This document shows positions 7,822-60,786 of a DNA stretch of 64,000 nucleotides, one piece after another. Position numbers and translations under genes: made by a program. Below the pieces are notes generated by a model, which was not told the DNA's origin, did not search any database, and worked only from the letters and a program-made list of their open reading frames with translations. Origin of the DNA: Dehalogenimonas sp. WBC-2 (GTDB lineage: Bacteria > Chloroflexota > Dehalococcoidia > Dehalococcoidales > Dehalococcoidaceae); contig CP011392.1 of NCBI GenBank assembly GCA_001005265.1, forward strand, positions 1,111,902 through 1,175,901, read 5' to 3'. Each line of letters starts with the position of its first letter. Positions within the stretch are counted from its first letter, which is position 1.

Positions 7822-7938
7822 GGTATTGCTTTCCTTTCGTTTATTTAATGCCATTGGTTGCCAATTGAAACCCATTACACATTCATTGGAGTCCTCGCTT
7901 TTGCCTGTCGTGTATCGGTTATAGGCTGGTTATTCCCT

Positions 7939-11710: not shown

Positions 11711-12754
11711 TCAGTTGTTCGTGTTCAATGTTACTGTGCTCCCCGACGTGGAAACGGACAAACCAGTGAGATTTGGGAAATTGTTACTGTTCACTGTTGT
11801 GCTGCAAGAGTAACTTACAGTTGAATCGTCATGTTTCAGTGCAATATTCGTAAAAACAGTGTCGCCTGGGACATCGCTATTATAGTAGATATTATACCCT
11901 TCGAGTGTCCAGTAATGGCGTAAACCAAATATACCATCATGTCCAAAACCTGTTTCGACGTAAAAACCCGATGTTTCACCGGTAGTGAGATTTTTGATCT
12001 GTACTCGCCATTCTTCCCACGGGACTATCTGATACATCCATCCTTCCATTTGGTCGTTAACACTGCAATCAATAGAAGAGGCTGCATAATCATTCCCAAA
12101 TGTTTGAGCAAACCACGCTCTTCCTGTCCATGCATGACTTCCTCCTTGATTCCATTCCAACACTGGTTGAATTATTTTATCTCCTGCCCATGGTTCAATG
12201 CCACTAAATAGAAAATCTATTGCAGAGGACGAAGGGTTCTGAGCAAATGATGGAACAATCCATTTACAATAGCTTTCATCTATGCGAAGGCCTGTGTCAT
12301 GCGCATCTTCTATCCACCCATTGCCCGCACTAGGTACTGTGAGACGGGAGACTTTACTTTTATCTCTAAAGGATTTAGGCTCGATAACCGTAAATAAAAC
12401 CTCTCCATTTTTAATGATAACGGTACTATTCCCCGTATCCCGAATGTGAACGTCGTTTGGCACGGAAAACACATGTGTCGCTATTTTTTCTCCCTGTGGA
12501 GTAATTATTGATGTTGCATTTGCATCATTCGTCTTGAAAAGGAGTTGGCCGTCGGACGAGAAAACATTGGTAATACCGGATTCAAGTTGTTCAACAATAG
12601 AGCCTTTAGGTATCTTCACCCCATCATTACCAGTGCTAAATCCATTGTTAACAACAACGTATTCAGTGGCCGCCGCCACACTGCCACCCCCCAGCATCCC
12701 CGCTAGGAGTGTCATTGTGCAGAAGACTGTCAAGAACCTTTTTTTGAATGACAT
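11711..12754 (-). CDS. Secreted protein, C-terminal half possibly a glutamic-peptidase (G1/eqolisin)-like beta-sandwich
   Basis: Start chosen at MSFKKRFLTVFCTMTLLAGMLGGGSVAAA, a signal peptide paralogous to that of the 6991..7821 gene. C-terminal motifs WIVPS, FSGIEPW, IIQPVLEW, KNLTTGETS, WTLEG and TVFTNIAL resemble the G1 family order. Confidence 0.6.
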   Translation of the reverse strand: MSFKKRFLTVFCTMTLLAGMLGGGSVAAATEYVVVNNGFSTGNDGVKIPKGSIVEQLESGITNVFSSDGQLLFKTNDANATSIITPQGEKIATHVFSVPNDVHIRDTGNSTVIIKNGEVLFTVIEPKSFRDKSKVSRLTVPSAGNGWIEDAHDTGLRIDESYCKWIVPSFAQNPSSSAIDFLFSGIEPWAGDKIIQPVLEWNQGGSHAWTGRAWFAQTFGNDYAASSIDCSVNDQMEGWMYQIVPWEEWRVQIKNLTTGETSGFYVETGFGHDGIFGLRHYWTLEGYNIYYNSDVPGDTVFTNIALKHDDSTVSYSCSTTVNSNNFPNLTGLSVSTSGSTVTLNTNN

Positions 12755-12892
12755 TTTAGCTTTCCCTTCGTTTATTTTAATACCGTTGGCTGCCAATTGA
12801 AGCATTTATACATTCATCGGAGTCCTCGCTTTCGCCATTCCCAGTTGACGTGATTTTGATTAACCAACATCATGGCTTTTAGGTCACGGAAG

Positions 12893-21654: not shown

Positions 21655-21700
21655 GAAGGATCATCGTAAACTTGAATCGTGATTAACGAGGTGATTGCAA

Positions 21701-23611
21701 ATGAGTTGGCATAGAAATCTATCTCAAGAGCAAAAAGAGAAAGCACAGCATTTCGGTTCACATGCCAGATTATTAGCTGGGCCAGGCACGGGTAAAACCC
21801 GAACCATGACTGCAAGAGTTGCATACCTTCTGGAGGAACGGGGGATTCCTTCCGACCAAATCCTTACTCTCACTTTTACACGAGCCGCTACAAGCGAGTT
21901 CAGAAAGCGTCTGGTTGAATTATTAGAACAACCAACTATCCCCAAAGTAAGCACTCTACATTCATTCGCTCTTCAATCACTTCTGCAACTTGGTGCAGGA
22001 AATCGCCTCCCTTCTCCCATAAGAATCGCGGATGATTACGAAGAAAGAGAAATTATTGAAGAGGACATTAAAGATATACTTGAATTGCATCGGGTGAAGG
22101 ATGCACGAGACCTAATAGATCTCCTATCCGCTGACTGGGAGATGCTAACAGCTGATGCGGATGACTGGGATAATCGTTTCCCTGACCCTAGATTCCTCGG
22201 TGCGTGGAGAGAACATCGAACAATATATGGTTACACTCTCCAAGCCGAACTTGTTTATCAATTGAAACAAGCCTTAGAGGAGGGAGCAAGAAGACTTGTC
22301 AACCTTCCAACCCATGTTTTAGTAGATGAATACCAAGATCTCAACGCCTGCGACTTATCCATCGTTCAAAATCTAGCGCGAAATGGTGCCCAGTTATATG
22401 TTGCTGGGGATGATGATCAGAGTATTTACGGTTTTAGGCATGCCGATCCCACTGGTATTCGCCGATTTTTAACAGAATACAACGGGTCAGTGGGGTTGAC
22501 CCTCTCGGAATGTCATCGCTGTGGCCAAAACATCCTTTCTATTGCAGAGTACGTGGCAGAACAAGATATACACAGACTCTTAAAACCCTTGACTCCTTGT
22601 CTTGGACGTCCAGGAGAAGTTCATCTATTGAGATTTGGTGATTTTCCTGATGAAGCCAATGCAATCGCGCAAATTTCCCGCTGGTTAATCGAAACCAAAG
22701 GCGTCACAGTTGACCAGATTTTGGTATTGGTCAGGTCCGACAATCATCGCAGATTCTCCAATCCGATTCGTACCGCTTTTCAAAATCAGGGAATTCCAGC
22801 GTCAACGATAGAAGACCCACTAAATGTGTTTGAACAAAAACAAGGCCGCAAGTTTATCTCCTTTCTTCGTTTAATGGTAAATCAAAACGATAATCTAGCT
22901 TGGCGAAACCTGATTATGATTCGCGAAAACAATCTTGGAGATGTCGCCGTCACAAGTATTTATGAAATTGCTCGAGATAGGGGGGGTACTTTCTTCGAAG
23001 CCATCTCTCTCATCGCTGACAGCCCTTCGCTCATACCCAGACAGGGTGAATTGATAAAAACAGAATTTGAGACCATAACGAACCTGCTCGGTAGACTCAA
23101 CACAGAACATGAACGGCTTGAAAATCTTACTGAGTTCATAAATTGGATGATTAACGACTTACTCGCTCTCCAAAATGTCGAAGAAATAATGATAATCATA
23201 GAACGTATTCTTGCAGAGAACCCTGGCATCTCGCTTGAAGATTTTCTCCGAGCACTTACTTCTCCAATGCATGAGGCAGAACAAATTCGAGTAAAAGGAA
23301 TGGTCAATATTATGACCATGCATCAGGCGAAAGGACTTGACGCAGAAGTTATATTTGTGGTCGCGGCAGAAGATGAGTATATTCCCGGACGAGCCCAAGG
23401 CAACGAAATCAATGATGAGCGTAGGTTGCTTTACGTATCCCTCACTCGCGCACGTTCTTTTCTTTACATCACTTACTGTAATCAAAGAACAGGGGTTCAA
23501 CAACATACAGGTAATTCAACTTTCACAGCGCAACGCCATCTAACACGATTTCTCAGTGGTGGTCCTATTCGTCCCAAGTCGGGTGGGACATATCTCGCTA
23601 CTCTTGTATAG
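21701..23611 (+). CDS. UvrD/Rep-like SF1 helicase (accessory, AT-rich gene)
   Basis: LLAGPGTGKTRT (Walker A), VLVDEYQDLN (motif II), YGFRHAD, MTMHQAKGLDAEVIFV, LLYVSLTRAR. ATG at 21701 is preceded by GAGGTG. Confidence 0.85.
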   Translation: MSWHRNLSQEQKEKAQHFGSHARLLAGPGTGKTRTMTARVAYLLEERGIPSDQILTLTFTRAATSEFRKRLVELLEQPTIPKVSTLHSFALQSLLQLGAGNRLPSPIRIADDYEEREIIEEDIKDILELHRVKDARDLIDLLSADWEMLTADADDWDNRFPDPRFLGAWREHRTIYGYTLQAELVYQLKQALEEGARRLVNLPTHVLVDEYQDLNACDLSIVQNLARNGAQLYVAGDDDQSIYGFRHADPTGIRRFLTEYNGSVGLTLSECHRCGQNILSIAEYVAEQDIHRLLKPLTPCLGRPGEVHLLRFGDFPDEANAIAQISRWLIETKGVTVDQILVLVRSDNHRRFSNPIRTAFQNQGIPASTIEDPLNVFEQKQGRKFISFLRLMVNQNDNLAWRNLIMIRENNLGDVAVTSIYEIARDRGGTFFEAISLIADSPSLIPRQGELIKTEFETITNLLGRLNTEHERLENLTEFINWMINDLLALQNVEEIMIIIERILAENPGISLEDFLRALTSPMHEAEQIRVKGMVNIMTMHQAKGLDAEVIFVVAAEDEYIPGRAQGNEINDERRLLYVSLTRARSFLYITYCNQRTGVQQHTGNSTFTAQRHLTRFLSGGPIRPKSGGTYLATLV

Positions 23612-24169: not shown

Positions 24170-25744
24170 ATGCCCGCCGCTAAAGAAGACCTGTCCCATG
24201 TAGAACTCAACCACCAGTTTGTCCAGGCGCTGGAACTTATGGAGCGCAGTGATAAAAGTGTGTTCGTCACCGGACGCGCTGGCACTGGCAAATCCACCCT
24301 GTTGACCTGGTTCCGCCAGACCACAGCCAAAAAAGCTGTCGTACTGGCGCCAACCGGCGTGGCGGCACTTAACGTCAAAGGCCAGACCATTCATTCCTTC
24401 TTCGGCTTTAAACCTGATATCACCCTGGACAAGATCCGGAAACGCAGCGTTAGAGTCAACGTCTATCGCAAGGTGGAAACCATCGTCATTGATGAGATTT
24501 CCATGGTTCGGGCAGACCTCTTGGATTGCGTTGACAAGTTCCTCCGGCTTAACGGACGGGACCCGGAGCGGCCTTTCGGCGGCGTTCAGATGATCTTCAT
24601 CGGTGATCTTTACCAGTTACCGCCAGTCATAACCAGTGCGGAGCAGAAGGCTTTTCAGGAACTTTATGAGACGCCCTATTTTTACAGCGCCCGGGTTTTT
24701 AAGGCCTTTGAGATGGAGCTGTTGGAACTGGAAAAGGTTTACCGTCAGCGTGACCAGAGTTTTATCGATATTCTAAACGCCATCCGTAACAACTCCATCA
24801 CCCCGGAAGGACTTGCCCAGCTCAATGAACGCTACCTGCCGGATGCACAGCCGCCCGCCGATGCCGGTTACATCTGTCTAACTACCACCAATGCCGCGGC
24901 CGGTGACATCAATACCGCCAGGCTGGACGGGCTGAGAGGCAGGTCATATCAGTTTAGTGCCAAAATTGAAGGTGAGTTTGCCAAAGAGTATCTACCGACC
25001 AAAACCGAGCTTGAGGTCAAAGTTGGCGCCCAGATAATGATGCTCAATAACGACACCATCGGACGCTGGGTCAACGGCAGCATCGGGCGGATCACCGCCA
25101 TTGAGCGGGATAATGAGGATTATGTCATCTACGCCGAACTTGCCAGCGGCAAGGAAGTGGAGATCAAGCCCTTCACCTGGGAGATATACCGATTCTTCGT
25201 CGATGGCGGCCAGTTGCAGTCAGAAGCCGCGGGCTCCTTCACCCAGTACCCGTTGATGCTGGCCTGGGCAGTGACCATTCACAAGAGTCAGGGCAAGACT
25301 TTTGACAAGGTCATCGTCGATATCGGCCGCGGCGCCTTCGCCTGCGGCCAGACCTATGTTGCCCTGAGCCGCTGCACCACGCTGGAAGGCATCATTCTTA
25401 AAAAGCCCATCCTTAAGAGGCATGTCATGACCGACTACCGTGTCATGAACTTCCTAACCCGTTACCGCTACCGGGAAGCGGCGGGGGTCTGCCCTGTTGA
25501 TAACAAAGTGGCGATTATCAAAGCCGCCATCGAGGATGGTCTGGCGCTCAAAATCGTCTATCTCAAACCCAATGATGAAAAATCCTGCCGGACTATCATT
25601 CCCCGCGACGTCGGTGAAATGAGCTACCGCAATAAGCCATACCTGGGCGTGCAGGCATTCTGTCTGACGCGGAATGAGGAACGTGTTTTTCGGGTGGACC
25701 GCATACTGGAACTGGAGACAGTCGAGCGACCGGATTCATTTTAA
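24170..25744 (+). CDS. Pif1/RecD-like SF1B helicase with C-terminal WYL-like domain
   Basis: GRAGTGKST Walker A, IVIDEISMV Walker B, IFIGDLYQLPPV, AVTIHKSQGKTFD, YVALSRC. The C-terminal 80 aa LKIVYLKPNDEKSCRTIIPRDVG...PYLGVQAFCLTRNEERVFRVDRILELE fits the WYL pattern. Confidence 0.85.
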   Translation: MPAAKEDLSHVELNHQFVQALELMERSDKSVFVTGRAGTGKSTLLTWFRQTTAKKAVVLAPTGVAALNVKGQTIHSFFGFKPDITLDKIRKRSVRVNVYRKVETIVIDEISMVRADLLDCVDKFLRLNGRDPERPFGGVQMIFIGDLYQLPPVITSAEQKAFQELYETPYFYSARVFKAFEMELLELEKVYRQRDQSFIDILNAIRNNSITPEGLAQLNERYLPDAQPPADAGYICLTTTNAAAGDINTARLDGLRGRSYQFSAKIEGEFAKEYLPTKTELEVKVGAQIMMLNNDTIGRWVNGSIGRITAIERDNEDYVIYAELASGKEVEIKPFTWEIYRFFVDGGQLQSEAAGSFTQYPLMLAWAVTIHKSQGKTFDKVIVDIGRGAFACGQTYVALSRCTTLEGIILKKPILKRHVMTDYRVMNFLTRYRYREAAGVCPVDNKVAIIKAAIEDGLALKIVYLKPNDEKSCRTIIPRDVGEMSYRNKPYLGVQAFCLTRNEERVFRVDRILELETVERPDSF

Positions 25745-29997: not shown

Positions 29998-31473
29998 TTA
30001 TTTTACCAGTGCACTTAGTCGCTCAACGATACGCACCATGCCCAGCGTATCCTGGCCGCAATATACAAGAAGATCATTAAAAATTTGCATTTTTTCCGCC
30101 TCCGCCATCCCGCCGAAGGCCGCGGCCACAAAACGCAGGCTGGCTACTTGTCCGTTGCTGATGTTCAGGTCTTTATAGCTTATGCCAGTCAAAGCCGGCA
30201 ATACATATTTCAACGAAGCGCTACCGCGCTGCACCGGGTGATAATAGTGAAAGGCACGGAAAGGCACGATGAGATCAACCATACGGGTTACAACATCATT
30301 CACCCAGTCAATGTATTCCGGGAAGGCTTCTCCCAGTTTCCTGAGTACGCCTTCCTCAAAGCTCTGGTTGTAAACAATGACGCAGCCGCCCTCCCCGAGC
30401 ATCGTTCTCAGGGCTGCCAGAAATGCCGGACGGGGATCATCTCCGCCTTGTGCCAGGAAATGATGATGCAGCGGTTCAATACCCGGTCCGTTAACGCTGT
30501 GGAGAGAAAATTGAAAGGGGATATTCTGGTACGGCCGGGTACCGTCAAACAGCGGTATCGCCATGGCGAAAGTCTCAAAATCCAGATAATAATGCGGGTA
30601 TTTTAGAGTTTCTAGAAATGATGTTACTCCGTCAAAATCAACGTGGGGCTGACCACACTCGACACAACCCCGCTGGATAAGCTGCTTTTCATTCAGCTTG
30701 AAATCCGCCGGAATATCAATAATGGCACACACGCCGCTGTGAAGGAGGTCATCCATCTTTGCGCCGATACGGTACAGGTCGGTTACCGGATGTTCCGGCA
30801 ACACTGCCCAGCACTCGTCTTTTAACGGACAATCGTAAGGGGCACCGCATGCTCGGCCGATACTTGGGGCAGGACATGGCCCGGCCATAGTCTCCAGCAT
30901 GCCTTCCACCATATCGGACATACCTCCGGCCAGTTCAAGAACGTCCTCGGTGATGTCCTCCGTAACCAGCAGCGCCGCCGGGTCAATGTCACCCTGTTTA
31001 ACAAAGTCACGGTTGATATGCGTTAAGAAGCAGCGGTTAACCTCAATGCCGGATTGGCCGCAAACATAGCGCTGGAAGGCTACATCGGCAATATTTTCAT
31101 CCTTGACCGATGTGCTGCTCTTAACCTCGATGATATCCCAGGCGCCGTTATCCGACGGGTTGAGGATATCGATGCGGGCGTATAGTTGTCCGGACTGAAA
31201 TGCCGCTTCAAAAATAGGCTTGCGATCATCCAGACGCACCTTGGTCTCAGTCAGCATCTCCCGAAAACCGAGACCAGCCATATCAATCCCGCCGGGATAC
31301 AGCCTCTTGGCTATATCTCCGACCTCGTGCCCCTGGTCGAAGGTATGTTGGGTCACCATGTCGGGCTGAGGTATTCGCTGAGGCTCATTAACATACACCC
31401 ATAGATAGCGCGGACATTGCAGCCCGGCCATGAATTTGGATTTGGTCAATAACTTAGCGGAGCGGTTTCTCAT
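29998..31473 (-). CDS. DUF2779-domain protein (predicted PD-(D/E)xK nuclease plus RNase H-like exonuclease fold)
   Basis: 491 aa. N-terminus LTKSKFMAGLQCPRYLWV is characteristic of DUF2779 as recalled. DIIEVKSST fits a D...E-x-K nuclease motif. Confidence 0.7.
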   Translation of the reverse strand: MRNRSAKLLTKSKFMAGLQCPRYLWVYVNEPQRIPQPDMVTQHTFDQGHEVGDIAKRLYPGGIDMAGLGFREMLTETKVRLDDRKPIFEAAFQSGQLYARIDILNPSDNGAWDIIEVKSSTSVKDENIADVAFQRYVCGQSGIEVNRCFLTHINRDFVKQGDIDPAALLVTEDITEDVLELAGGMSDMVEGMLETMAGPCPAPSIGRACGAPYDCPLKDECWAVLPEHPVTDLYRIGAKMDDLLHSGVCAIIDIPADFKLNEKQLIQRGCVECGQPHVDFDGVTSFLETLKYPHYYLDFETFAMAIPLFDGTRPYQNIPFQFSLHSVNGPGIEPLHHHFLAQGGDDPRPAFLAALRTMLGEGGCVIVYNQSFEEGVLRKLGEAFPEYIDWVNDVVTRMVDLIVPFRAFHYYHPVQRGSASLKYVLPALTGISYKDLNISNGQVASLRFVAAAFGGMAEAEKMQIFNDLLVYCGQDTLGMVRIVERLSALVK

Positions 31474-31620: not shown

Positions 31621-32397
31621 TTATATTTCGGTACGAACGTTGTTGATTGCCTCAGTAACACCGCGGGTAACAGCCCGGGCAATAAGCTCGCCCAGTTTGA
31701 CCTGCCCGGAGACATAGAAACAGCGGTCGCCGGTACCAGGTACAATGCATATCTGGTCAGTGCTGGTGCCTGTCGCCTGCCACTGCGGGTTATAAGAACT
31801 CCTGATATCCAGATCCTGAAGTGCCGCAGTCTTGGCCTCGGTGATGGTAATAAAACTGGAAGCCATGGCCGCCTGCCCCAGGTCAGCGGAGGTAAATACA
31901 ATGATATTGATGGTGCCAAAAGGCTGCCACAACCCCTTACGCTCCATGCCATATGCAGCATCACAACCAACCCGGATAGCATTGGTTTTAACCCCTGCTG
32001 TAACCCAGGCCTGCACCCACAGTTCCTCAAATCTCTCTTCCACCATGACATGCTTATGCATATCAACGCCGGTAAACAGCAAGGCTACTTTTTGACCAGG
32101 AACTATCTGTCGTAGCATTTCACGATGTACATTGCGGGTATAGTCCCAATAAGTTTGCTTCGTATTGTCTACGGCGTGCCATGATTCCTTGGGATGGTAG
32201 CAATTGAGAACGGCGGTTACTTTGCGGTAGCCCTGGTAGGCACACAGGACATGCCGCGGTTGCGGAAGACTAAATATCAGAGTGTTGGCCGGACACTCCC
32301 AAACCTCATGGTTAATAATTTCGGCTTTGACACCATGGAAATCCCCTAGTGATTCACGCGATGTTACCTTGGATATATTTCTCATATCTTTAACCAT
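31621..32397 (-). CDS. cbiZ: Adenosylcobinamide amidohydrolase CbiZ-like
   Basis: GTINIIVFTSADL...AMASSFITITEAKTAALQDLDIRS...ATGTSTDQICIV matches the CbiZ family. ATG at 32397 overlaps the upstream radical SAM stop by 8 nt. Confidence 0.8.
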   Translation of the reverse strand: MVKDMRNISKVTSRESLGDFHGVKAEIINHEVWECPANTLIFSLPQPRHVLCAYQGYRKVTAVLNCYHPKESWHAVDNTKQTYWDYTRNVHREMLRQIVPGQKVALLFTGVDMHKHVMVEERFEELWVQAWVTAGVKTNAIRVGCDAAYGMERKGLWQPFGTINIIVFTSADLGQAAMASSFITITEAKTAALQDLDIRSSYNPQWQATGTSTDQICIVPGTGDRCFYVSGQVKLGELIARAVTRGVTEAINNVRTEI

Positions 32398-33799
32398 GCA
32401 TCGGCCGGGTGACATAGTACCGCCACCAGAACCGGAAAACCCTGAAAAATTCTTTGGGACTCCAGTTGACTGGTATGTAAAAAGCCAACATTCCATGCCG
32501 GACTGCAAAACTCATTCGCCGCCAGAAATAATACTTAACCAGCTTGCGCTTGAACTCGGCAGTCATCTCCTTGGGAACTTCTCCCCACTTTATACCGCAA
32601 TCAGGCTCAGATATGAACGCCGCCCACTCCTCGGTAGACTGGGGAGGTTCCAGGCCGTGCTGAACGCAATAATTATACAGCTCAGTGCCGGGGTAAGGCA
32701 GAAAACTGACGTATTGGTACGGTGGGTTGCCCAACTCTTTAATCAGTTGCTTGGTGTCTTCAAAATCCTCAATGGTTTCAGTAGGCAGTTCAGAGATAAG
32801 GTACAGTTTGGGCAATATCCGATATTTAACCAGTAGTTTGAATGTCTCTTTGATATCTTCCAGCCCGGCAGTCTTACGGATAAATTTAAGCAACCGTGGT
32901 GAGCCGCTCTCTACCCCAAAGCCCACCGAGGCGCAGCCGCTTTTCTTCATCAGACTTACGTCCTCTTCTGTCAGGCCTGCGCGGGCGTCGCAATCCCAGC
33001 GGATCTTCATCTTCTTTTCAATAACCAACTGGCAAAAGCGATGGAGCCGCGGCCGGTTGTGACAAAAATCGTCCTCGAAAAAACGAAAGAGGGTTACGCC
33101 ATAGCGTTTCTTGAGAATCTCCATCTGACCCACTATTCGGTCGGCGGAGAACTCTCCCAGTTGGCCTTTATGGAAAGGTGGATTGTAGCAAAAAATGCAC
33201 TTTGACGGACAACCGCGGGAGGTATTTAATGACTTTTCCCAATAGTCATCCATGGGCACAAGGTGCCAGGCGGGATCAGGCAGTTCATCCAGGTTCTTAA
33301 TGAAAGGACGGTCAGGATTAATGATAACCTGGCCGCTCTTCTTGAATGCCAGTCCCTTGATATCTACCAGGTTTGCCGGTTTGCCTTTATCAAGATGTTC
33401 GGCCAGTTCCAGCAGCGTATACTCACCGGGACCGATTACCACAAAATCAACATATCCCTCACTTAAAGTTTGTTCGGTCAACATACTGGGATGGACGTTA
33501 CCCCAAACAATCTTAATCTCCGGATTGAGACGTTTGAACTCCTGTGATTGCTCGATAGCCTCATAGATAATGCCACCCACCGAAACCGAAAAACCAACTA
33601 TTTGTGGATCAAAGCTACTGTAGTAATCAGCGGCTTTAAGACTATGCACCTGCTGATCCCAGATACGCACTTCGTGTCCTGCCTTCTCCAGTACCGCCCC
33701 GATGTAAAGCAGTGAATTTGGCAGCACCGTCGGCTGTAAAGACCGGGTGCCGAAAAAGCTCTTGAAACGTTTGGCGGGGTTAACCAGCAGGATACGCAT
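32390..33799 (-). CDS. B12-binding-domain radical SAM protein (class B), paralog 2
   Basis: 469 aa. N-terminal Rossmann/B12-type domain (MRILLVNPA...LLYIGAVLEKAGHEVRI). Radical SAM cluster motif RGCPSKCIFC (CX3CX2C). Confidence 0.88.
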   Translation of the reverse strand: MRILLVNPAKRFKSFFGTRSLQPTVLPNSLLYIGAVLEKAGHEVRIWDQQVHSLKAADYYSSFDPQIVGFSVSVGGIIYEAIEQSQEFKRLNPEIKIVWGNVHPSMLTEQTLSEGYVDFVVIGPGEYTLLELAEHLDKGKPANLVDIKGLAFKKSGQVIINPDRPFIKNLDELPDPAWHLVPMDDYWEKSLNTSRGCPSKCIFCYNPPFHKGQLGEFSADRIVGQMEILKKRYGVTLFRFFEDDFCHNRPRLHRFCQLVIEKKMKIRWDCDARAGLTEEDVSLMKKSGCASVGFGVESGSPRLLKFIRKTAGLEDIKETFKLLVKYRILPKLYLISELPTETIEDFEDTKQLIKELGNPPYQYVSFLPYPGTELYNYCVQHGLEPPQSTEEWAAFISEPDCGIKWGEVPKEMTAEFKRKLVKYYFWRRMSFAVRHGMLAFYIPVNWSPKEFFRVFRFWWRYYVTRPMHG

Positions 33800-33976
33800 C
33801 AGCGTTAGACCCTTAACCCAAGACTAAAGTTTTTGACCAATTTCAAATCCTAAATTCCAGCAAATCATTAATATGGGTTAAAAATCATGTGTTTCAACCA
33901 TATAATATCTCTCAGTCTATTCTCTTTATTAGAATAACATCTTGGAGAAGTCTTAAGAAATTATTGCACCAGAACG

Positions 33977-35392
33977 TCACCTGAGTTGTCCTCTTATGCT
34001 GCCTTCGGGCAGCGGGCGGGTATTAAAATAGAGCAAGAAACGTTTCAGTCCTTTGACCAGCGCCACAGGCGTTGGAGTGAGACGGGTAAAATAGAAAGGC
34101 ATGTGTCGTAACGCAAAACGCAACGGACGGAGAAAGTAGAAGTGCCGCAGATCATCCAGTGCTTTATCCAACATCTCCGGTGGCACCTTGAGATATGATG
34201 GGTTAATTGCACGCAGAGTAAGCACACCAGCCCATTCAGCCAGGGTTGCAGGTTCTTTAATCAAGCCTTCATTAACAATGTAGTCATACAGCACCGTACC
34301 TGGGAATGGCATATATGGCATATACTGATAAGGTGGTCGATCCAGCCTTTTTATAAGGTTTTGTGTCTCCTGGAATTCCTCGATTGTTTCTGATGGTAAT
34401 TCAGCTATGAAGTACAGGCGCGGCATGATCTTGTGGCGGGCGAGCCGTGCGATAGTCTCTTCCACAGCTCTAATGGTGATACCCTTTTTGATGAACTTGA
34501 TGATGCGAGGCGAGCCGCTTTCAATACCAAGCCCGACAGATAGACAGCCGGCCTTGGACATCAGTGCAATATCTTCGTCTGACAGGCCGATACGGGAATC
34601 GCAATCCCACTGTACCGGCATCTTACGTTCAATCATCAGCTCGCAAAACTTGCGCAGCCTATCCCTGTTACAGGTAAAAGTGTCCTCAAAGAAACGGATA
34701 AATTTAACACCATACCTGGTATAAAGATGTTCGATTTGGCTAACGATACGTTCGGCGGATAGGTCGCCGGAGTAACCCTTGTAAAACAGCGGTGAATAAC
34801 AAAAAGTGCACTTTGAAGGGCAACCGCGGGAGGTATTTAATGATTTTTCCCAGTAACTAAGTACATCAATCAAATGCCACGCCGGATCGGGTAATTCGTC
34901 CAGGTCTTTAATAAACTCACTTGGCTCATTGATGACCAGTTTGCCGTCATCTTTCCACACCAGGCCTTTGATCTCAGCTATAGACGGCGCGCCGGTTTCG
35001 AGATACTTAGCCAACTCAACCATAAGGTACTCACCCGCACCGACGCACAGGTAGTCAATGTATTCTTCTGCGATAGTCTGCTGCGGCAGAACACTGGGAT
35101 GGACATTGCCCCAGATAGTCTTGACACCGGGCAGCAACACCTTGAATTCCTTGGTCTGCTGAATGGCCTCAACAATGTTAGGGCCGGAAAGCACCGAAAA
35201 ACCTATTAATTGAGGGTTGAAATCTGCAATGTCTTTCGGCTCACGCAAATCCACCTGGTTATCATAAATGCGCACTTCATGCCCGGCTTGCTCCAACACT
35301 GCAGCGATATAAAGCAGGCTGTTGGGAAAAACGCTGTGACGGCCAAAAGCATCGAAGTTTTTACGCGCGGGATTAACCAGCAGAATTTTCAA
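33977..35392 (-). CDS. B12-binding-domain radical SAM protein (class B), paralog 1
   Basis: Start set at TTG 35392 (GGAGA 7 nt upstream), giving MKILLVNPARKNF collinear with paralog 2. RGCPSKCTFC motif. Roughly half the residues are identical to paralog 2 by eye. Confidence 0.85.
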   Translation of the reverse strand: MKILLVNPARKNFDAFGRHSVFPNSLLYIAAVLEQAGHEVRIYDNQVDLREPKDIADFNPQLIGFSVLSGPNIVEAIQQTKEFKVLLPGVKTIWGNVHPSVLPQQTIAEEYIDYLCVGAGEYLMVELAKYLETGAPSIAEIKGLVWKDDGKLVINEPSEFIKDLDELPDPAWHLIDVLSYWEKSLNTSRGCPSKCTFCYSPLFYKGYSGDLSAERIVSQIEHLYTRYGVKFIRFFEDTFTCNRDRLRKFCELMIERKMPVQWDCDSRIGLSDEDIALMSKAGCLSVGLGIESGSPRIIKFIKKGITIRAVEETIARLARHKIMPRLYFIAELPSETIEEFQETQNLIKRLDRPPYQYMPYMPFPGTVLYDYIVNEGLIKEPATLAEWAGVLTLRAINPSYLKVPPEMLDKALDDLRHFYFLRPLRFALRHMPFYFTRLTPTPVALVKGLKRFLLYFNTRPLPEGSIRGQLR

Positions 35393-35632
35393 TATCGGTT
35401 CTCCGAAAGTGTCTAGGGCTGATGACAGCGGACATCGGTCTATTGCAAATGACGATAGACTCCGGCGATGATCCACATTGCCATATAAACGACAATAACA
35501 GCGGCAATTAAGAATTCCATACGTGTGTATTATGGCTTATCCAGCAAGGCGAGGCAAATTACACCACCAACCAAAAGCGAATTCCGGTAACTGACTGACC
35601 CTGAGGCACCGAAAATGCTATAATATACGGCT

Positions 35633-37855
35633 TTGAAAAAGGATTTACTTGAAGGCTTGAACCCTGCCCAGCGAAAAGCCGCCGAGGCTATAAATGGCCC
35701 GGTGCTCATTCTTGCCGGCCCCGGCTCGGGCAAAACCCGGGTTATCACTTTCCGGATCGCTTATCTGGTACAGGTGGTGGGCATAAACCCTCATCGAATA
35801 CTGGCGGTGACCTTTACCAATAAGGCAGCGCGGGAAATGCGGGAGCGTCTGGAAAAACTGACGCCCGGCTCGGTAAACGACATGACCATGGGCACTTTCC
35901 ATGCCATCTGCGCCGGTATACTCCGGCGTGATGGTGAAGCCATCGGCATCGGGCGGGAGTTCGTCATCTTTGATGCCGATGACCAGGAAAAACTCCTGAA
36001 ACAGGCGGCCATCGAGAATGATATCGACCCTAAAAAGTTCCCGCTGAAAAAGATTGCCGGTGTCATCAGTCAAGCCAAAAGTCAAATGTTGACCCCCGAA
36101 CAGTTCCAGAATCAAGCCAAGAGTTATTTTGAGGAAATCGTGTCCCGTATGTATGAGCGTTACGAGAAAATGCTCCATCAGAACAATGCGTTAGATTTCG
36201 ATGACCTGCTCCTAAAGACTGTCTTTCTTTTCAAGCGCCAGCCGCATATATTGAAACGTTACCAGGAACGCTACCTTCATATCATGGTTGACGAGTTCCA
36301 GGATACTAACCTGGTTCAATATGAACTGGTAAAATTATTGGCCGCCCAACACCGCAATATCGCCGTAGTCGGCGATCCCGACCAATCCATCTATTCCTGG
36401 CGGGCTGCAGACCTCAGAAATGTCTTCAACTTTGAGCGGGACTTCTCTGACACTCAAGTTTATTATTTGGAACAGAACTACCGCTCCACAGCTAAAATCC
36501 TGGAGGCCGCTTCCGGCATTATCGCCGATAACCGCGCCCGCAAGGACATTAAGCTGTGGACCGAAAATGAGTCCGGCGCGCCAGTATGCCTCATTGAAGC
36601 CTACAATGAACAGGAAGAAGCTCAGATGGTGGTACGTGAGGCCGAACGTCTGACTGCCTCCGGGAATTATCGCCTGGCTGATTTGGCCGTTCTGTACCGG
36701 ACAAACGCTCAAAGCCGCGCCTTGGAAGAAGCCTTTATTCGCTACGGAGTACCCTACAAGCTGGTGGCCGGTACCCGCTTCTATGAACGCCGTGAAGTTA
36801 AGGATCTTATTGCATATTTCCGCCTGATTCATAATCCCGCAGACAGCATCAGCCTGGCACGCATTATCAATGTTCCACCGCGTGGACTGGGCGAGCGTTC
36901 TATCCAGGAGATGCAGACCTGGGCCCGAGTAAAAGATATCTCCTTCTATGAAGCACTCAAACTATCTGCCTCTGGCATTGACAAACCACCGCTTAACTCC
37001 CGCGCTCTAGCCTCATTTGATATTTTTTTTAGCACTATCAGGTCATTCATAGATGCTAGTAATCACAGTCCTGTGCTGGAGTTATTTGACCTGGTGCTGG
37101 AAAAGAGTGGTTATCTGGCTTATTTGAAAACACAGCCAGATGGCGAGGAACGCCTTGAAAATATCGCCGAGTTACGCACCGTCACCGAGCAGTTCAATAA
37201 TCTGCCACCGGGTGAAGCCCTGTCCCCCTTTCTGGAAAGCGTCAGCCTGGTTTCCGACGTTGACACTTTAGAAGAGACCGAAGGGGGCGTAACACTGATC
37301 ACCCTGCACCAGGCCAAGGGACTTGAGTTTCCAGTGGTATTCATCGTCGGTCTGGAAGAGGGCGTGCTGCCGCACTTCCGCTCCCTTGATGACCCAACTC
37401 AGATGGAAGAGGAGAGACGATTGTGCTACGTTGGCGTCACTCGCGCCAAGCAACGGTTGTATCTTCTGCGCGCCTTCCGGCGCAGTCTGATGGGCAGCAG
37501 TATGACCAACCCGCCGTCGCGTTTTCTGGGAGCTCTTCCAGCACACTTAACAACAGAAATGGGTATCCGGGAGGAGACACCTAAACCGCAACCGGTACAA
37601 CAAAAGAAACTTTATGAATATGCCGCTCATCCGCCTCAGCCTCAGGTGGAAAGCCGCCGCCCGGTGACTCCATCCGGCACTAAACCATCTGCACCGCCGC
37701 TTAAAACCGGGGATAAGGTCAGTCATCCTGTCTTCGGTGACGGAGTGGTTATCAGCACTCTTCCTGTCAAAAGCGATTATGAAATTGTGGTCTCATTTAA
37801 AACAGAAGGCTTGAAGAAACTACTTTTGAGCTTTGCCAGGCTCACAAAGCTATAG
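35633..37855 (+). CDS. pcrA: ATP-dependent DNA helicase PcrA/UvrD
   Basis: LLEGLNPAQRKAAEAINGPVLILAGPGSGKTRV, MVDEFQDTN, YRSTAKIL, TLHQAKGLEFPVVFIVG, CYVGVTRAK, and a C-terminal Tudor-like tail GDKVSHPVFGDGVV. Confidence 0.93.
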   Translation: MKKDLLEGLNPAQRKAAEAINGPVLILAGPGSGKTRVITFRIAYLVQVVGINPHRILAVTFTNKAAREMRERLEKLTPGSVNDMTMGTFHAICAGILRRDGEAIGIGREFVIFDADDQEKLLKQAAIENDIDPKKFPLKKIAGVISQAKSQMLTPEQFQNQAKSYFEEIVSRMYERYEKMLHQNNALDFDDLLLKTVFLFKRQPHILKRYQERYLHIMVDEFQDTNLVQYELVKLLAAQHRNIAVVGDPDQSIYSWRAADLRNVFNFERDFSDTQVYYLEQNYRSTAKILEAASGIIADNRARKDIKLWTENESGAPVCLIEAYNEQEEAQMVVREAERLTASGNYRLADLAVLYRTNAQSRALEEAFIRYGVPYKLVAGTRFYERREVKDLIAYFRLIHNPADSISLARIINVPPRGLGERSIQEMQTWARVKDISFYEALKLSASGIDKPPLNSRALASFDIFFSTIRSFIDASNHSPVLELFDLVLEKSGYLAYLKTQPDGEERLENIAELRTVTEQFNNLPPGEALSPFLESVSLVSDVDTLEETEGGVTLITLHQAKGLEFPVVFIVGLEEGVLPHFRSLDDPTQMEEERRLCYVGVTRAKQRLYLLRAFRRSLMGSSMTNPPSRFLGALPAHLTTEMGIREETPKPQPVQQKKLYEYAAHPPQPQVESRRPVTPSGTKPSAPPLKTGDKVSHPVFGDGVVISTLPVKSDYEIVVSFKTEGLKKLLLSFARLTKL

Positions 37856-53958: not shown

Positions 53959-54849
53959 TTATTCGGAGATGTCTTTACAGGTATCAAAATGCTTTGCGAG
54001 AAATGCAAGCACTTTTTCTCGTATTAACGGATAATCGTGCCAGTTATAATCATGTCCAGGAGCACCTATATATAGAAGAACGTTCCCGGGTGCTTTGGGA
54101 TTCCTTCCAAAAATGGCGGCAATATTAGCCATGATAGCCCGACGCCAGTGTCCATAACTAAAGGCATCCGGTACGGTTCCATTACTCCGCAGATTCATAA
54201 TGCGCCCATTCTGGTAGGCTTTATACCAGAATGGCGGTCCAAACTCGATACTGAAAAGTCTGGATTCATCAGCCATTAATCGCATTACCTGGTTGGACAT
54301 AACTGTGCCATTACTCTCAGCAGTTAAAAGAACTTTTAAGTTAGGCAGGTGATTCCATAAAAAACGTAGCCGGAGTGCCAATTCACTCGGTTTGGCGATT
54401 GATTTGGCTCCGGCGTTCAATATTTCACTGATATAACCACGCAAACTGCGGAAAGCACGTTGGTAACTCAACACACTTACGGAACATTTCTTTGACACAA
54501 GATGTGACTCGATAGCGTTAATAATAGTCGCATATCCGGATGCTTTGTCCAGTGACGTCCAGCCATATCCCCCTGAGTTAAAGAGGACAAGTATATTAGT
54601 ATTTTCCAGTGTCTGATATGTTGCCAACATGTCAGAGGCCAGCCGGAGCTGCTTGACCCGGTCGTGTCTGTGGAGTGTTTTCGCCATTGCCAGAGCATCT
54701 TCTCTTATAGGCTGTGGAATATTGGTCGGCGCACCGGTTAACAATGATAGACCATTACGTGCCTGCCGCATTAAACCGGGTTCCGGCATCTGCCAGGCCA
54801 AGACCACAACGACACCAATCACACCTAGGATAACCAATGCAACAAACAT
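53959..54849 (-). CDS. Membrane-anchored hypothetical protein, possibly an alpha/beta-hydrolase fold
   Basis: N-terminal TM helix. Candidate nucleophile elbow TAESNG (AxSxG) and C-terminal GAPGHDY. The assignment is weak. Confidence 0.5.
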   Translation of the reverse strand: MFVALVILGVIGVVVVLAWQMPEPGLMRQARNGLSLLTGAPTNIPQPIREDALAMAKTLHRHDRVKQLRLASDMLATYQTLENTNILVLFNSGGYGWTSLDKASGYATIINAIESHLVSKKCSVSVLSYQRAFRSLRGYISEILNAGAKSIAKPSELALRLRFLWNHLPNLKVLLTAESNGTVMSNQVMRLMADESRLFSIEFGPPFWYKAYQNGRIMNLRSNGTVPDAFSYGHWRRAIMANIAAIFGRNPKAPGNVLLYIGAPGHDYNWHDYPLIREKVLAFLAKHFDTCKDISE

Positions 54850-58467: not shown

Positions 58468-60786
58468 ATGCCGGAAAACTCAGTTCTTATCGTCGACAGC
58501 GATCCCGCTACCAAGGACACCGCCGCTTGGCTCAAAGGCGCTGGCTTTCGCGTAACTACCGCATCAACAGGTGAAGAAGCTCTAAACTTGATTGACAATC
58601 AGGATTTTAGCGTAATGCTTTTAGACATGCGACTACCAGGGAAACATGGACTGGGTGTGCTACGTGAAGTCAAAGTTAAACGTCCATGGCTACAGACTAT
58701 TGTTACTACTGACCATCCCTCAGTTGAATCAGCGACTGAAGCCTTAAAACAAGGGGCTGTTGATTACCTGGTTAAACCGGTATCTCCCCAAGATCTAGCA
58801 CAACTAGTTAAGGATACTATTAAATCGGCAGCCAAACAAAAAATGGCAGCCGTTCAAATCAAATCCAAGGCGGCACCTAGCAAAATGCTTCCTCAAGCCA
58901 CCTTCGTGATTAGCTGTGACAGCCTTAAAAATTTGGTCAACAGTCTTATCAAAGAGCGTGAAGCTATCGGTGTGAAGACCAAGAATGGCAAATTCACTTA
59001 TGGCAAGATCAAGAACTACGATGAACTAATGCTGGATTACGATGTCACTGTTAATCCCCCCACAGCCTTTTTTATCCCTGCCTGTGAGACCATTCTGAAA
59101 TATAAACTCGGAGATAACCCTGAAATTGCACCAGTGACCGATATCACACCACGTGTCCTCATTGGTGTTCACCCTGATGACATTAATGCCATCAACCTCC
59201 TTGACGAAGTTTTCATGACTGGCAATCCTGATCCAAACTACACTGCCCGCAGGCAGAATACCCTCATCATCGGTGTGGACGTACTCACTCCGCAACCAAC
59301 TTCTTTTGCCCCGAGTATGGGCTCACATCTGGCCGAAAGTGGTTTTGATTTACTGCTCACCGATATTGGTAATGTCAGTTATATGGTCACTGTTGGTTCC
59401 GATGCAGGGGCCCAGGTGCTGGCAAAATACGCTCAAGTACGTGAACCGACTATTGCCGAAACAGCACGTCAAAAACAGGTCAGGGATGAAGCATTATCCA
59501 AATACCGGCTCTTTTTGGATATGCCCAGAGAAAAGATCCCCCATCTTTTGGAAAACAATTACGACAATCCCTACTGGATGTCGCGGTCTGAGGGTTGTCT
59601 AAACTGCGGTTCTTGCATTATGGTCTGTCCCACCTGCTTTTGCTTTGATGTACAGGATGATATTTCACTGAACATGATTGACGGTGAGCGGGTTCGCAAA
59701 CCCGATGGCTGTATGCTGGTTGATTTCTCAAAAGTGGCTGCCGGTGCCAACTTCCGGGGCGATAAAATGAGCCGTTTCCGCCACCGCATGTACCACAAAG
59801 GCAAGTATATCCTGGACCGGTACGGCAAATTCGGCTGTGTCGGTTGCGGCCGGTGCACCGTTACATGTCTGGCCGAAATCGCCAGCCCGCTTGAAGCATA
59901 TAATTCCATCGCTGACAGCGAAAAGAACAAGGAAAAAGCGCGACGGACAATCACAAATACCCGCCCCCAGCCGGACCTTTATCTGCCGCACCTGGCCAAC
60001 ATAGTTAAAACTACGTCGCTTTCAAATCGGGAGAAGCTTTTTGAGTTTAAGCTCAAAGACGGCACTGCTCTCGGTCATCGGCCAGGGCAGTTCGTTGAGG
60101 TCTATGTCTTCGGGATCGGTGAATCACCCATCTCTCTGACTTCGTCACCCACTCGCGACCACACTTTTGAAGTGGCGGTGCGGAATGTCGGCAATGTCAC
60201 CGGCGCACTGCACCGTCTTGAAGAGGGGTCTGCAGTGGGCATACGCGGCCCATTTGGTAACGGTTTTCCGCTGGAACAGATGGAAGGTAAGGATCTGCTT
60301 TTCATTGCCGGCGGCATTGGTATTTTTCCGTTGCGGTCCCTGATTCAATACGTCCTTGATCGGCGTGAAGATTACGGTAAAATCAACCTGTTGTTCGGCT
60401 CCCGTTCACCTTCTGAGCGCGTCTTCGCAGACGACATGGCTCAATGGGCCGCCGCTCCTGATGTTACTTTATTGGAAACTGTGGATAAAGGTGATGAGAC
60501 CTGGACAGGCAACGTCGGCGTTATAACCACGCTTATCCCTAAAATTCAATTTGACCCCAGGCGAACAGTGGCTGTGGTGGTTGGGCCACCGATCATGTAC
60601 CGCTTCGTCATCAACGAACTTAAAAAACGCGATGTGGCCGATGATAACATCATCGTCTCCTTGGAACGCAAGATGAAATGCGGTGTCGGTAAATGTGGTA
60701 ACTGCCAGATCAACGGCGTATATGTCTGTCAGGAAGGCCCGGTTTTCAGTATGACCCGGCTACGAACTTTAAGGGAGGCCATCTAA
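58468..60786 (+). CDS. Fusion protein: response-regulator receiver domain + 4Fe-4S (sulfhydrogenase beta/AsrA-like) + FAD/NAD(P)/2Fe-2S (gamma/AsrB-like) diaphorase module
   Basis: Residues 1-120 form a REC domain (IVDSD, LLDMRLPG, TTD, VKPV). The middle has CLNCGSCIMVCPTCFC and CVGCGRCTVTC. The C-terminus has RPGQFVEV, SPISLTS, FIAGGIGIFPL and CGVGKCGNCQ. Confidence 0.85.
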   Translation: MPENSVLIVDSDPATKDTAAWLKGAGFRVTTASTGEEALNLIDNQDFSVMLLDMRLPGKHGLGVLREVKVKRPWLQTIVTTDHPSVESATEALKQGAVDYLVKPVSPQDLAQLVKDTIKSAAKQKMAAVQIKSKAAPSKMLPQATFVISCDSLKNLVNSLIKEREAIGVKTKNGKFTYGKIKNYDELMLDYDVTVNPPTAFFIPACETILKYKLGDNPEIAPVTDITPRVLIGVHPDDINAINLLDEVFMTGNPDPNYTARRQNTLIIGVDVLTPQPTSFAPSMGSHLAESGFDLLLTDIGNVSYMVTVGSDAGAQVLAKYAQVREPTIAETARQKQVRDEALSKYRLFLDMPREKIPHLLENNYDNPYWMSRSEGCLNCGSCIMVCPTCFCFDVQDDISLNMIDGERVRKPDGCMLVDFSKVAAGANFRGDKMSRFRHRMYHKGKYILDRYGKFGCVGCGRCTVTCLAEIASPLEAYNSIADSEKNKEKARRTITNTRPQPDLYLPHLANIVKTTSLSNREKLFEFKLKDGTALGHRPGQFVEVYVFGIGESPISLTSSPTRDHTFEVAVRNVGNVTGALHRLEEGSAVGIRGPFGNGFPLEQMEGKDLLFIAGGIGIFPLRSLIQYVLDRREDYGKINLLFGSRSPSERVFADDMAQWAAAPDVTLLETVDKGDETWTGNVGVITTLIPKIQFDPRRTVAVVVGPPIMYRFVINELKKRDVADDNIIVSLERKMKCGVGKCGNCQINGVYVCQEGPVFSMTRLRTLREAI

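Follow-up and report, generated by a model that had tools for sequence, protein, structure and literature searches.

A 64,000-nt stretch of the Dehalogenimonas sp. WBC-2 chromosome (GCA_001005265.1, contig CP011392.1, positions 1,111,902 to 1,175,901 of the forward strand; hereafter the window) contained a minus-strand cassette of four consecutive genes: a 26-amino acid (aa) open reading frame (ORF), two paralogous B12-binding radical S-adenosylmethionine (SAM) proteins (rSAM-A and rSAM-B), and a diverged paralogue of CbiZ. Gene order and its persistence among relatives point to a Dehalogenimonas-specific, vertically conserved operon that is probably transcribed as one unit. The cassette is tentatively read as a genus-specific corrinoid-handling module in which the rSAM proteins would act on a corrinoid-derived substrate. 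CbiZ is the adenosylcobinamide/pseudo-B12 amidohydrolase of Methanosarcina mazei and Rhodobacter sphaeroides (cited in PMC3541065). Members of Dehalogenimonas are auxotrophic for corrinoids and rely on salvage and remodelling (PMC13390414), and their salvage genes (btuFCD, cobA, cbiZ, cbiB, cobD, plus cobTSCU) form one locus of 10-12 genes (PMC13390414). The cassette and its nearest features, in the order of the minus strand, were as follows.

35529..35557, minus strand: promoter-like site from a consensus scan (-35 TTGCCT, 17-nt spacer, -10 CATAAT)
35440..35520, minus strand: small ORF, 26 aa, first gene of the unit
33977..35392, minus strand: rSAM-A, 471 aa, PF02310 and PF04055 (class B architecture)
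33800..33976, no strand: A/B spacer, 177 nt, AT-rich, from reading of the sequence
32390..33799, minus strand: rSAM-B, 469 aa, paralogue of rSAM-A, PF02310 and PF04055
31621..32415, minus strand: diverged CbiZ paralogue, 258-264 aa, PF01955, start ambiguous
29998..31473, minus strand: DUF2779 protein, 491 aa, PF11074 (140.3 bits)

The coordinates and strand that an earlier note on this stretch had given for the two rSAM genes, CbiZ, and the DUF2779 gene were confirmed. That note missed the small ORF, the divergence of CbiZ, and how greatly the rSAM family has expanded in this lineage.

Conservation of the cassette among relatives

Gene context was compared across a sample of 119 loci. One or two rSAM genes lay directly before a CbiZ gene of the same sequence clade (mostly S/Q-type, described below) in nine loci: the window, D. 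formicexedens (L001), the metagenome-assembled genomes (MAGs) XYDCF (L005) and TCA1 (L007), D. alkenigignens (L031/L032), a D. lykanthroporepellens-type contig (L033), and three metagenome contigs (L034, L035, and L036). In one further MAG (L006) the sequence ended before CbiZ. The linkage proposed in the earlier note was therefore conserved in relatives. The linked loci covered CbiZ identities from 92% down to 61%. Every CbiZ homologue at or above 61% identity had an rSAM gene upstream, while none of the approximately 75 loci at or below 55% did. Unlinked CbiZ genes stood in salvage operons such as BtuF-BtuC-BtuD-CbiZ-CbiB-CobD-CobT-CobS-CobC (L115) or a similar set with CobU added (L116). 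Homologues in this salvage context were 49-52% identical to the cassette CbiZ, and one lay behind a cobalamin riboswitch. The closest homologues of the cassette proteins were from Dehalogenimonas (94% and 88% identity for rSAM-B; 92% and 84% for CbiZ).

The sequences flanking the cassette differed between species. A divergent PcrA/UvrD helicase gene formed the upstream flank in the window, L007, and L033, while amino-acid and betaine ABC transporter genes took this place in L001 and L031. The cassette was thus maintained while its surroundings were rearranged.

The number of rSAM genes also varied. The D. lykanthroporepellens-type locus had a single rSAM gene before CbiZ, approximately 65-68% identical to rSAM-A (whole length or aligned columns), so the pair of paralogues described in the earlier note is not a defining feature. 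A neighbour-joining (NJ) tree, the only tree method used, placed the CbiZ-linked rSAM proteins in one clade (197 of 200 bootstraps). Within it, the rSAM-A orthologues together with the single-copy L033 protein, and likewise the rSAM-B orthologues, were each recovered in all 200 bootstraps. Because the single copy grouped with rSAM-A, the A/B duplication would predate the split from the single-copy lineage. Mean identity to paralogues outside the clade was 46% for rSAM-B versus 47% for rSAM-A, rSAM-B being the more diverged copy. For D. etheniformans GP, the hit lists from clustered databases held neither the linked rSAM clade nor an S/Q-type CbiZ, which suggests that the two are jointly absent from that organism.

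The small ORF encodes the peptide MEFLIAAVIVVYMAMWIIAGVYRHLQ, with a hydrophobic, transmembrane (TM)-like N-terminal part and the tail W[VI]IAGVYRHLQ; no Pfam match was found for it. Each of the seven linked loci having upstream sequence carried it ahead of rSAM-A (the window, L001, L005, L006, L007, L031/L032, and L033). A homologue also preceded an A-type rSAM gene (65% identical) in L119, a locus without CbiZ. The N-terminal 15-20 residues varied in sequence and kept their hydrophobicity (Kyte-Doolittle mean 2.1-2.7), whereas the last 11 residues were invariant save for one V/I change. Across the seven loci, 12 of the 33 nucleotides of the 11-codon tail varied: 11 of these changes were synonymous and one was the V/I change. 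Among the synonymous differences, each of the four Gly and four Val codons occurred, and Arg was encoded by AGG or CGN. From this pattern the small ORF is judged, at the sequence level, to be a translated peptide under protein-level selection. The earlier note, which saw no precursor peptide nearby, was mistaken at least in that a conserved 26-aa ORF exists at 35440..35520.

A CATAAT -10 hexamer was invariant in all seven aligned loci, 8-10 nt before the small-ORF start. Since it stands so close to the start codon, the transcript probably begins with the small ORF as a leaderless or near-leaderless gene. The scan for promoters and terminators gave counts no higher than the shuffled expectation for the region overall, and the weight of the promoter-like site in this sequence comparison comes solely from the conservation of its -10 box in the alignment.

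The cassette CbiZ matched PF01955 with 158.8 bits (gathering score 27) over profile positions 3-191 of 191, and the CbiZ-like assignment in the earlier note thus passed the profile check. The protein retained 33 invariant columns. Two near-invariant CbiZ motifs, ATGTGTDQ and Y-V-G-G-H-x-K-L-G-E (G/GH), were changed to ATGTSTDQ and Y-V-S-G-Q-x-K-L-G-E (S/SQ) in the cassette clade. Eleven proteins among 120 CbiZ homologues plus the window had the S/SQ state, all of them in the group at or above 64% identity. The nine rSAM-linked loci scanned consisted of seven with S/SQ, one with an intermediate S/SH state, and one in which the second motif was unreadable; the unlinked loci with both motifs readable had G/GH in every case (63/63). 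By sequence, the linked CbiZ is a distinct subclade in which two near-invariant positions have changed, G to S and H to Q.

Identity of the cassette CbiZ to the CbiZs in btuFCD-cbiB-cobD-cobT-cobS-cobC-cobU operons of other Dehalococcoidia was 45-56%. The linked CbiZ is an additional paralogue, because MAG XYDCF also has two canonical CbiZ genes, located in a salvage island with CobA, CbiB, BtuF, and NrdJ. The genes that accompany canonical CbiZ (btuFCD, cbiB, cobD, and cobTSCU), and the cobalamin riboswitch that often precedes it, were missing for the cassette CbiZ in the window. A sequence search of the PDB with the cassette CbiZ returned zero structures. Its AlphaFold2 (AF2) model (mean predicted local distance difference test score, pLDDT, 82.7) resembled the self-processing amide hydrolases NylC, BapA, and ThnT (E approximately 3e-7; TM-score approximately 0.46). 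Amidohydrolase activity of the cassette CbiZ is putative and follows from its family membership alone.

The rSAM-B and CbiZ genes overlap or abut in the window. The overlap CATGGTTAA was present: CbiZ has an ATG at 32397, rSAM-B stops at 32392..32390, and 8 nt are shared (ATGGTTAA). An alternative in-frame ATG at 32415, conserved in L001, L005, and L034, would give a 26-nt overlap, and a third candidate ATG at 32385 lies 4 nt past the rSAM-B stop. In other lineages the rSAM-CbiZ gap was 4-81 nt. The 8-nt overlap reported in the earlier note therefore exists for one of three starts; the CbiZ start is ambiguous, and it was the tight spacing, not the overlap itself, that was conserved.

The rSAM proteins and their family

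Both rSAM proteins scored above the Pfam cut-offs for a B12-binding domain (PF02310; 64.9 bits in rSAM-A and 66.8 bits in rSAM-B) and a radical SAM domain (PF04055; 87 and 80.4 bits). No other Pfam domain was found in either protein, including a RiPP (ribosomally synthesized, post-translationally modified peptide) recognition element (RRE) or PqqD domain. The two were 51% identical over 468 residues (BLASTP), in agreement with the earlier description of two roughly half-identical proteins of this kind. The motif RGCPSKC(T/I)FC, also named earlier, was present in both and contains the canonical CxxxCxxC (CPSKCTFC in rSAM-A and CPSKCIFC in rSAM-B). This cysteine motif was kept in 117 of 120 rSAM homologues, and all family-invariant residues were retained in rSAM-A and rSAM-B. 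Orthologues were 82-89% identical for rSAM-A and, in Dehalogenimonas, 82-94% identical for rSAM-B. The rSAM-A gene starts with TTG, 8 nt after GGAG. This start and its ribosome-binding site were kept in six of seven aligned loci, the L001 row being misaligned at that point.

The spacer between the rSAM genes was 177 nt long in the window versus 16-67 nt in L001, L005, L007, and L031. It contained no terminator-like site, Rfam match, repeat, or conserved ORF. Small ORFs inside it (at most 31 aa) were dismissed, as the shorter spacers in relatives preclude their conservation.

The curated NCBIfam cut-offs were reached by neither rSAM protein. The top scores were BchE (159 bits; cut-off 481), ApyD (144 bits; cut-off 750), and HpnJ (140 bits; cut-off 578), and the matches were limited to the shared B12 and radical SAM core (approximately residues 1-380 to 1-427). 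BzaD (TIGR04385) scored lower still, at 84.9 bits for rSAM-A and 84.0 bits for rSAM-B against a cut-off of 450. Assignments to BchE, HpnJ, HpnR, ApyD, PhpK, KedN5, AprD4, the MCR glutamine methylase, or TsrM were rejected, all lying far under the curated cut-offs. The C-terminal approximately 90 residues were family-specific, being aromatic, basic, and helical in the model. The AF2 model of rSAM-B (pLDDT 82.7) matched AprD4 best, and also TsrM, OxsB, MgmA, CysS, and TokK (E 1e-15 to 1e-19; TM-scores 0.6-0.7). The PDB sequence search gave remote matches only (AprD4, OxsB, 9ccb [MgmA], CysS, and TokK). The fold search on the model supports a class-B architecture and gives no discrimination of function. 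To our knowledge AprD4 has a B12-like domain but does not use cobalamin. Cobalamin binding and use by rSAM-A and rSAM-B are predicted from PF02310 and the class-B structural neighbours.

The family to which these proteins belong was expanded. At least 12 paralogues were found in the 2.15-Mb genome of MAG XYDCF, some standing alone and others in tandem groups of two or three. Paralogue loci came from this MAG (CP139473; L010, L011, L012, L016, L017, L019, and L020), from TCA1 (L008 and L014), from D. lykanthroporepellens (L002/L003), and from L018. Outside the linked clade a recurring module consisted of a small rSAM gene (260-290 aa) directly before one to three B12-rSAM genes. Such modules were often followed by NrdJ, the adenosylcobalamin-dependent ribonucleotide reductase (TIGR02504, 631 bits; cut-off 400), and frequently by a PF01902 (DUF71) gene, and they sat amid response-regulator genes and rdhA (reductive dehalogenase) genes. 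On the basis of gene clustering, a role in B12 salvage has been predicted for a bacterial DUF71 subgroup (DUF71-B12), and five copies were noted in Dehalococcoides CBDB1 (PMC3541065).

Near relatives of rSAM-A occurred in two further loci with corrinoid genes. In L118 the order was CbiE-like, CobA, rSAM, and CN_hydrolase, beside rdhBA; in L119 it was small ORF, rSAM, and an overlapping CbiE-like gene. These CbiE-like and CobA neighbours passed their cut-offs (TIGR02467 and TIGR00708). In L114, NrdJ adjoined CobA and CbiB. Because CbiZ, CbiE-like proteins, CobA, NrdJ, and RdhA all accompany the family, its link with corrinoid metabolism is the best-supported general statement that these sequences allow.

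Four CbiE-like genes were located (L114:1185-1901, L114:10654-11376, L118:21-701, and L119:2673-3359). Three of the four passed TIGR02467; L114:1185-1901 scored 76 bits versus the cut-off of 92.9. They occurred in salvage islands and beside B12-rSAM genes in organisms without de novo corrin synthesis, and CN_hydrolase and small rSAM genes recurred alongside them.

Four of the top 120 rSAM homologues were fusions of a full-length B12-rSAM protein, with its Cys motif intact, to HisKA and HATPase_c domains (L117:698-3043, JGI Ga0366835_1008547; proteins P0030, P0033, and P0052). The L117 fusion was approximately 780 aa long and 51% identical to rSAM-B of the window, with CxxxCxxC intact. The gene order there was NrdJ, fusion, response regulator, and two rdhA-rdhB pairs. 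By sequence the L117 fusion resembles the sensor kinase of a two-component system, with the B12-rSAM part as its input domain, placed before rdh genes.

Two further observations concern the paralogue arrays. A conserved element of approximately 125-130 nt (65% GC) immediately preceded either the small rSAM gene or nrdJ in rdh-island modules (L010:4841-4964, L016:5275-5399, L017:4015-4144, and L018:1088-1217). A multi-stem structure was predicted for it (43-44 pairs, five with compensatory changes among the four sequences). No Rfam match was found up to E 0.1. A search of 51 sources with its covariance model gave no additional copy, and neither the window nor the linked loci contained one. The element is a candidate cis-regulatory RNA. 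Larger rSAM genes (approximately 710-730 aa) were also found near B12-rSAM arrays (L017:11444-13600, L019:11092-15380, and L022:3489-5675). The L017 protein, the one scanned, had a C-terminal PqqD (RiPP recognition) domain, and a 440-aa rSAM was also adjacent in L017 and L022. Some B12-rSAM arrays may thus belong to peptide-modifying clusters.

Genomic setting of the cassette

The window was core chromosome, with mutS, dnaN, pyk, pyrR-pyrB-pyrC-carAB, argJBD, pfk, and hydrogenase genes, and the stretch was located in one DNA metagenome run. Among the scanned window ORFs of at least 150 aa there was no cobamide gene besides the cassette CbiZ (no bza and no cobT), as the earlier note had remarked for bzaA/B/C and cobT, and no rdhA. 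Rfam matched zero families at the gathering threshold over the whole 64 kb, the cobalamin riboswitch included. Searched for separately, this riboswitch was not found up to E 1 in the cassette, nor in five orthologous and eight paralogue loci. The control worked: RF00174 was recovered upstream of btuF in the canonical salvage operon of L115.

The DUF2779 gene followed CbiZ on the same strand after 147 nt, as described earlier (140 bits), and was also downstream of CbiZ in L001, L005, L007, L031, L033, and L034. It is regarded as a syntenic neighbour, and any functional link to the cassette would be putative. A PF03747 ADP-ribosylglycohydrolase gene lay between CbiZ and DUF2779 in L031 (9881-10654) and L033 (8799-9569), and in D. 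alkenigignens (L031) a 327-aa HNH-like gene was also there; neither was present at this position in the window.

Three helicase genes occurred within 16 kb of one another in the window: one PIF1-like, with a WYL domain at its C-terminus, and two of the UvrD/PcrA family (24170-25744, 21695-23611, and 35633-37855, all plus strand). The PcrA-type helicase was the divergent neighbour of the cassette and had the same place in L007 and L033. At 58468-62794 (plus strand) a 772-aa protein combined a response-regulator receiver domain with an oxidoreductase subunit of the kind associated with hydrogenases (Fer4_22, FAD_binding_6, NAD_binding_1, and a DHODB-type Fe-S domain). NiFe-hydrogenase small-subunit-like and then large-subunit-like genes followed this fusion. 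Four minus-strand ORFs of 267-364 aa were Pfam-negative (E up to 0.001): 5704-6507, 6991-7875, 11711-12805, and 53959-54849.

Candidate roles of the cassette and its family

The preferred but tentative interpretation of the cassette is a corrinoid-handling module in which the rSAM proteins would act on a corrinoid-derived substrate. A promoter would drive a near-leaderless 26-aa membrane peptide, one or two B12-rSAM proteins (rSAM-A, joined in most lineages by rSAM-B), and a specialised CbiZ paralogue. As its family membership implies, the CbiZ variant would hydrolyse the amide linking an imported corrinoid to its nucleotide loop. The rSAM proteins would use [4Fe-4S], SAM, and cobalamin for radical chemistry on a corrinoid-derived molecule, methyl transfer being the likeliest reaction. 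Candidate targets are the periphery of the ring and the loop or lower ligand once released. Such a pathway would form a remodelling branch parallel to the canonical btuFCD-cbiZ-cbiB-cobTSCU pathway encoded elsewhere in the genome. Two features of the sequences argue for this interpretation over simple cofactor provisioning: CbiZ is private and diverged, and both genes appear to be missing together from D. etheniformans GP.

Several points weigh against a corrinoid-derived substrate. We know of no rSAM enzyme acting on a complete corrinoid, and BzaD and BzaE are the sole B12-rSAM proteins of a corrinoid pathway known to us; they are not close to the cassette proteins (85 versus 450 bits). The loop-rebuilding genes cbiB, cobT, cobS, and cobU were found neither in the cassette nor in the 64-kb window, and no cobalamin riboswitch preceded the cassette in the window or the five orthologous loci. 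A membrane-associated or peptide substrate, in place of a water-soluble corrinoid, is suggested by the conserved TM-like small ORF and by the C-terminal helices of the rSAM proteins, which are aromatic and basic. Genes for B12 enzymes often adjoin genes for cofactor maintenance without acting on the cofactor. Finally, with its H to Q change the CbiZ variant may have ceased to hydrolyse corrinoids. The cassette CbiZ is like canonical CbiZ in being a clear PF01955 member, and unlike it in being an extra copy that lies outside a salvage operon, lacks a riboswitch, and has S for G and Q for H at the two near-invariant positions. The DUF71-B12 and other genes of Dehalococcoidia salvage islands are a parallel case, tied to B12 salvage by gene clustering only (PMC3541065). 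DUF71-B12, small rSAM, and CbiE-like genes co-occurred with paralogues of the rSAM family and none was in the window cassette, so that this link is one at the level of the family.

It is possible, if rather doubtful, that CbiZ only provisions the cofactor: the rSAM proteins would act on an unrelated, possibly membrane-associated substrate and CbiZ would trim unsuitable imported cobamides for their use. A B12 enzyme is likewise co-encoded with an enzyme processing its corrinoid cofactor in pdu operons (PduO, PduS, and PduGH) and eut operons (EutT). Unlike CbiZ, those proteins adenosylate, reduce, or reactivate the cofactor, and we know of no pdu or eut system with a loop-removing amidohydrolase or with a radical SAM enzyme. 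B12 enzymes adjoined salvage genes in the present sample as well (NrdJ, CobA, and CbiB in L114; rdhA, CbiE-like, and CobA in L118), and the rSAM proteins are themselves predicted to need cobalamin. The small TM peptide and the amphipathic rSAM C-termini would suit a non-corrinoid substrate at the membrane, and the lack of loop-rebuilding genes and of a riboswitch in the cassette is consistent with provisioning too. Yet approximately 10 other family paralogues of the same genome manage without their own CbiZ, relatives already hold canonical copies, and there is no evident need for a private, diverged CbiZ without the near-invariant His in one enzyme clade. A RiPP-like or peptide-derived cofactor system is unlikely, and would cast the 26-aa peptide as the substrate, C-methylated or cross-linked by the rSAM proteins and processed by a CbiZ-derived amidase of NylC/BapA fold. 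RiPP C-methyltransferases of the B12-rSAM type are well known. As in the clusters of polytheonamide (PoyB/C), the bottromycin methyltransferases, and ApyD, a small ORF lies just 5' of B12-rSAM genes and an amide hydrolase is part of the unit; the peptide, moreover, is hydrophobic and Val/Ile-rich. It is encoded by the first gene, it is under selection with its C-terminal 11 residues invariant save for V/I, and it accompanies an A-type rSAM in L119 without CbiZ. ApyD was the second-best NCBIfam match, the CbiZ model resembled the peptide and oligoamide hydrolases NylC, BapA, and ThnT, the clade-specific CbiZ changes are compatible with a change of substrate, and other arrays of the family lay near PqqD-domain rSAM proteins (L017 and L022). 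Set against these likenesses, the peptide looks like a plain TM helix whose N-terminal part conserves hydrophobicity and not sequence. Neither an RRE or PqqD domain in rSAM-A or rSAM-B nor an exporter in the cassette was found. NCBIfam RiPP models stayed far under their cut-offs, and ApyD at 144 of 750 bits was no better than BchE or HpnJ. The hydrolase is a bona fide CbiZ-family protein, still 50-56% identical to ordinary salvage-operon CbiZs, and a peptidase role would leave the CbiE-like corrin methyltransferase partner in L119 unexplained.

The remaining explanations are all improbable, and the most improbable is the one raised by analogy in the earlier note, in which rSAM-A and rSAM-B would methylate benzimidazole lower ligands in the manner of BzaD and BzaE after CbiZ has removed the old ligand. 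Dehalococcoidia need benzimidazole-type cobamides. Both systems have paired paralogous class-B rSAM proteins in a cobamide context, with a B12-binding Rossmann domain before the radical SAM core, and here the pair stands beside an enzyme that removes lower ligands. There are also differences: the BzaD model scores given above fell far below the cut-off, and BchE, ApyD, and HpnJ all scored higher; the partners are CbiZ and a small membrane peptide in a corrinoid-auxotrophic host; and the genes of the Bza context (bzaA/bzaB/bzaF, bzaC, and cobT) were absent from the scanned ORFs of the 64-kb window and from the orthologous loci. One lineage (L033) has a single rSAM, and the family numbers 12 or more members, most of them next to rdhA. 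The analogy is therefore not supported, while the broader proposal of a corrinoid-related role remains plausible through the corrinoid neighbours found across the family. Nor did the findings that the earlier note had named as speaking against its proposal appear: the rSAM proteins joined no family of known non-corrinoid function, their linkage to cbiZ was conserved, and the downstream ORF matched the CbiZ profile. A role as sensor or regulator, with the B12-rSAM domain reporting cobamide, SAM, or redox status and the cassette tuning corrinoid handling to supply, is hardly more probable. It draws on the full-length, approximately 51%-identical homologues with intact CxxxCxxC that are fused to HisKA and HATPase_c, on the L117 fusion that precedes a response regulator and two rdhAB pairs, and on the response regulators common near paralogues. 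The cassette itself has no output domain in rSAM-A or rSAM-B and no regulator gene, and both proteins retain all family-invariant residues. Nearly as improbable is the absence of any functional link, with the genes neighbours by descent only and packed tightly in a streamlined genome. The linkage is restricted to one genus, CbiZ homologues at or below 55% identity are unlinked, and flanking genes vary among species. Mere descent fits poorly with a small ORF-rSAM-CbiZ order and strand that persist through flank rearrangement, with the overlap or tight spacing at the rSAM-CbiZ junction, with the clade-specific changes in CbiZ, and with the apparent co-absence of both genes in D. etheniformans GP.

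A wider proposal is speculative and must be considered doubtful. The small peptide, the B12-rSAM pair, and the diverged CbiZ would constitute a new corrinoid-tailoring or peptide-derived cofactor pathway; the expanded B12-rSAM family would supply cobamide-processing or -sensing modules that couple cofactor status to organohalide respiration; and the kinase fusions before rdhAB would be the sensory end.

The proteins described here are of known kinds; their conserved combination and the wiring of the rSAM family to organohalide-respiration loci are new. A search of the available literature returned no description of the operon, the small ORF, the family expansion, or the kinase fusions, and no link between Dehalogenimonas radical SAM genes and cbiZ or rdhA; the word "radical" is absent from a 2026 comparative-genomics paper on Dehalogenimonas. 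Interest lies mainly with specialists in cobamides and organohalide respiration. Dehalogenimonas and Dehalococcoides detoxify chlorinated solvents in groundwater, and which cobamides they can scavenge, and in what supply, limits their activity. The known salvage route (btuFCD, cbiZ, cbiB, and cobTSCU) leaves unexplained the extra CbiZ copies, the CbiE-like methyltransferases in a corrinoid auxotroph, and the dozen B12-rSAM genes per 2-Mb genome. A conserved operon with a specialised CbiZ offers a concrete, cloneable entry to this unexplored corrinoid metabolism. The kinase fusions suggest a mechanism for cofactor-dependent control of reductive dehalogenase genes. Should the rSAM proteins prove to work on corrinoids, radical SAM chemistry would gain a new reaction class, and the choice of cobamide amendments for bioremediation could change.

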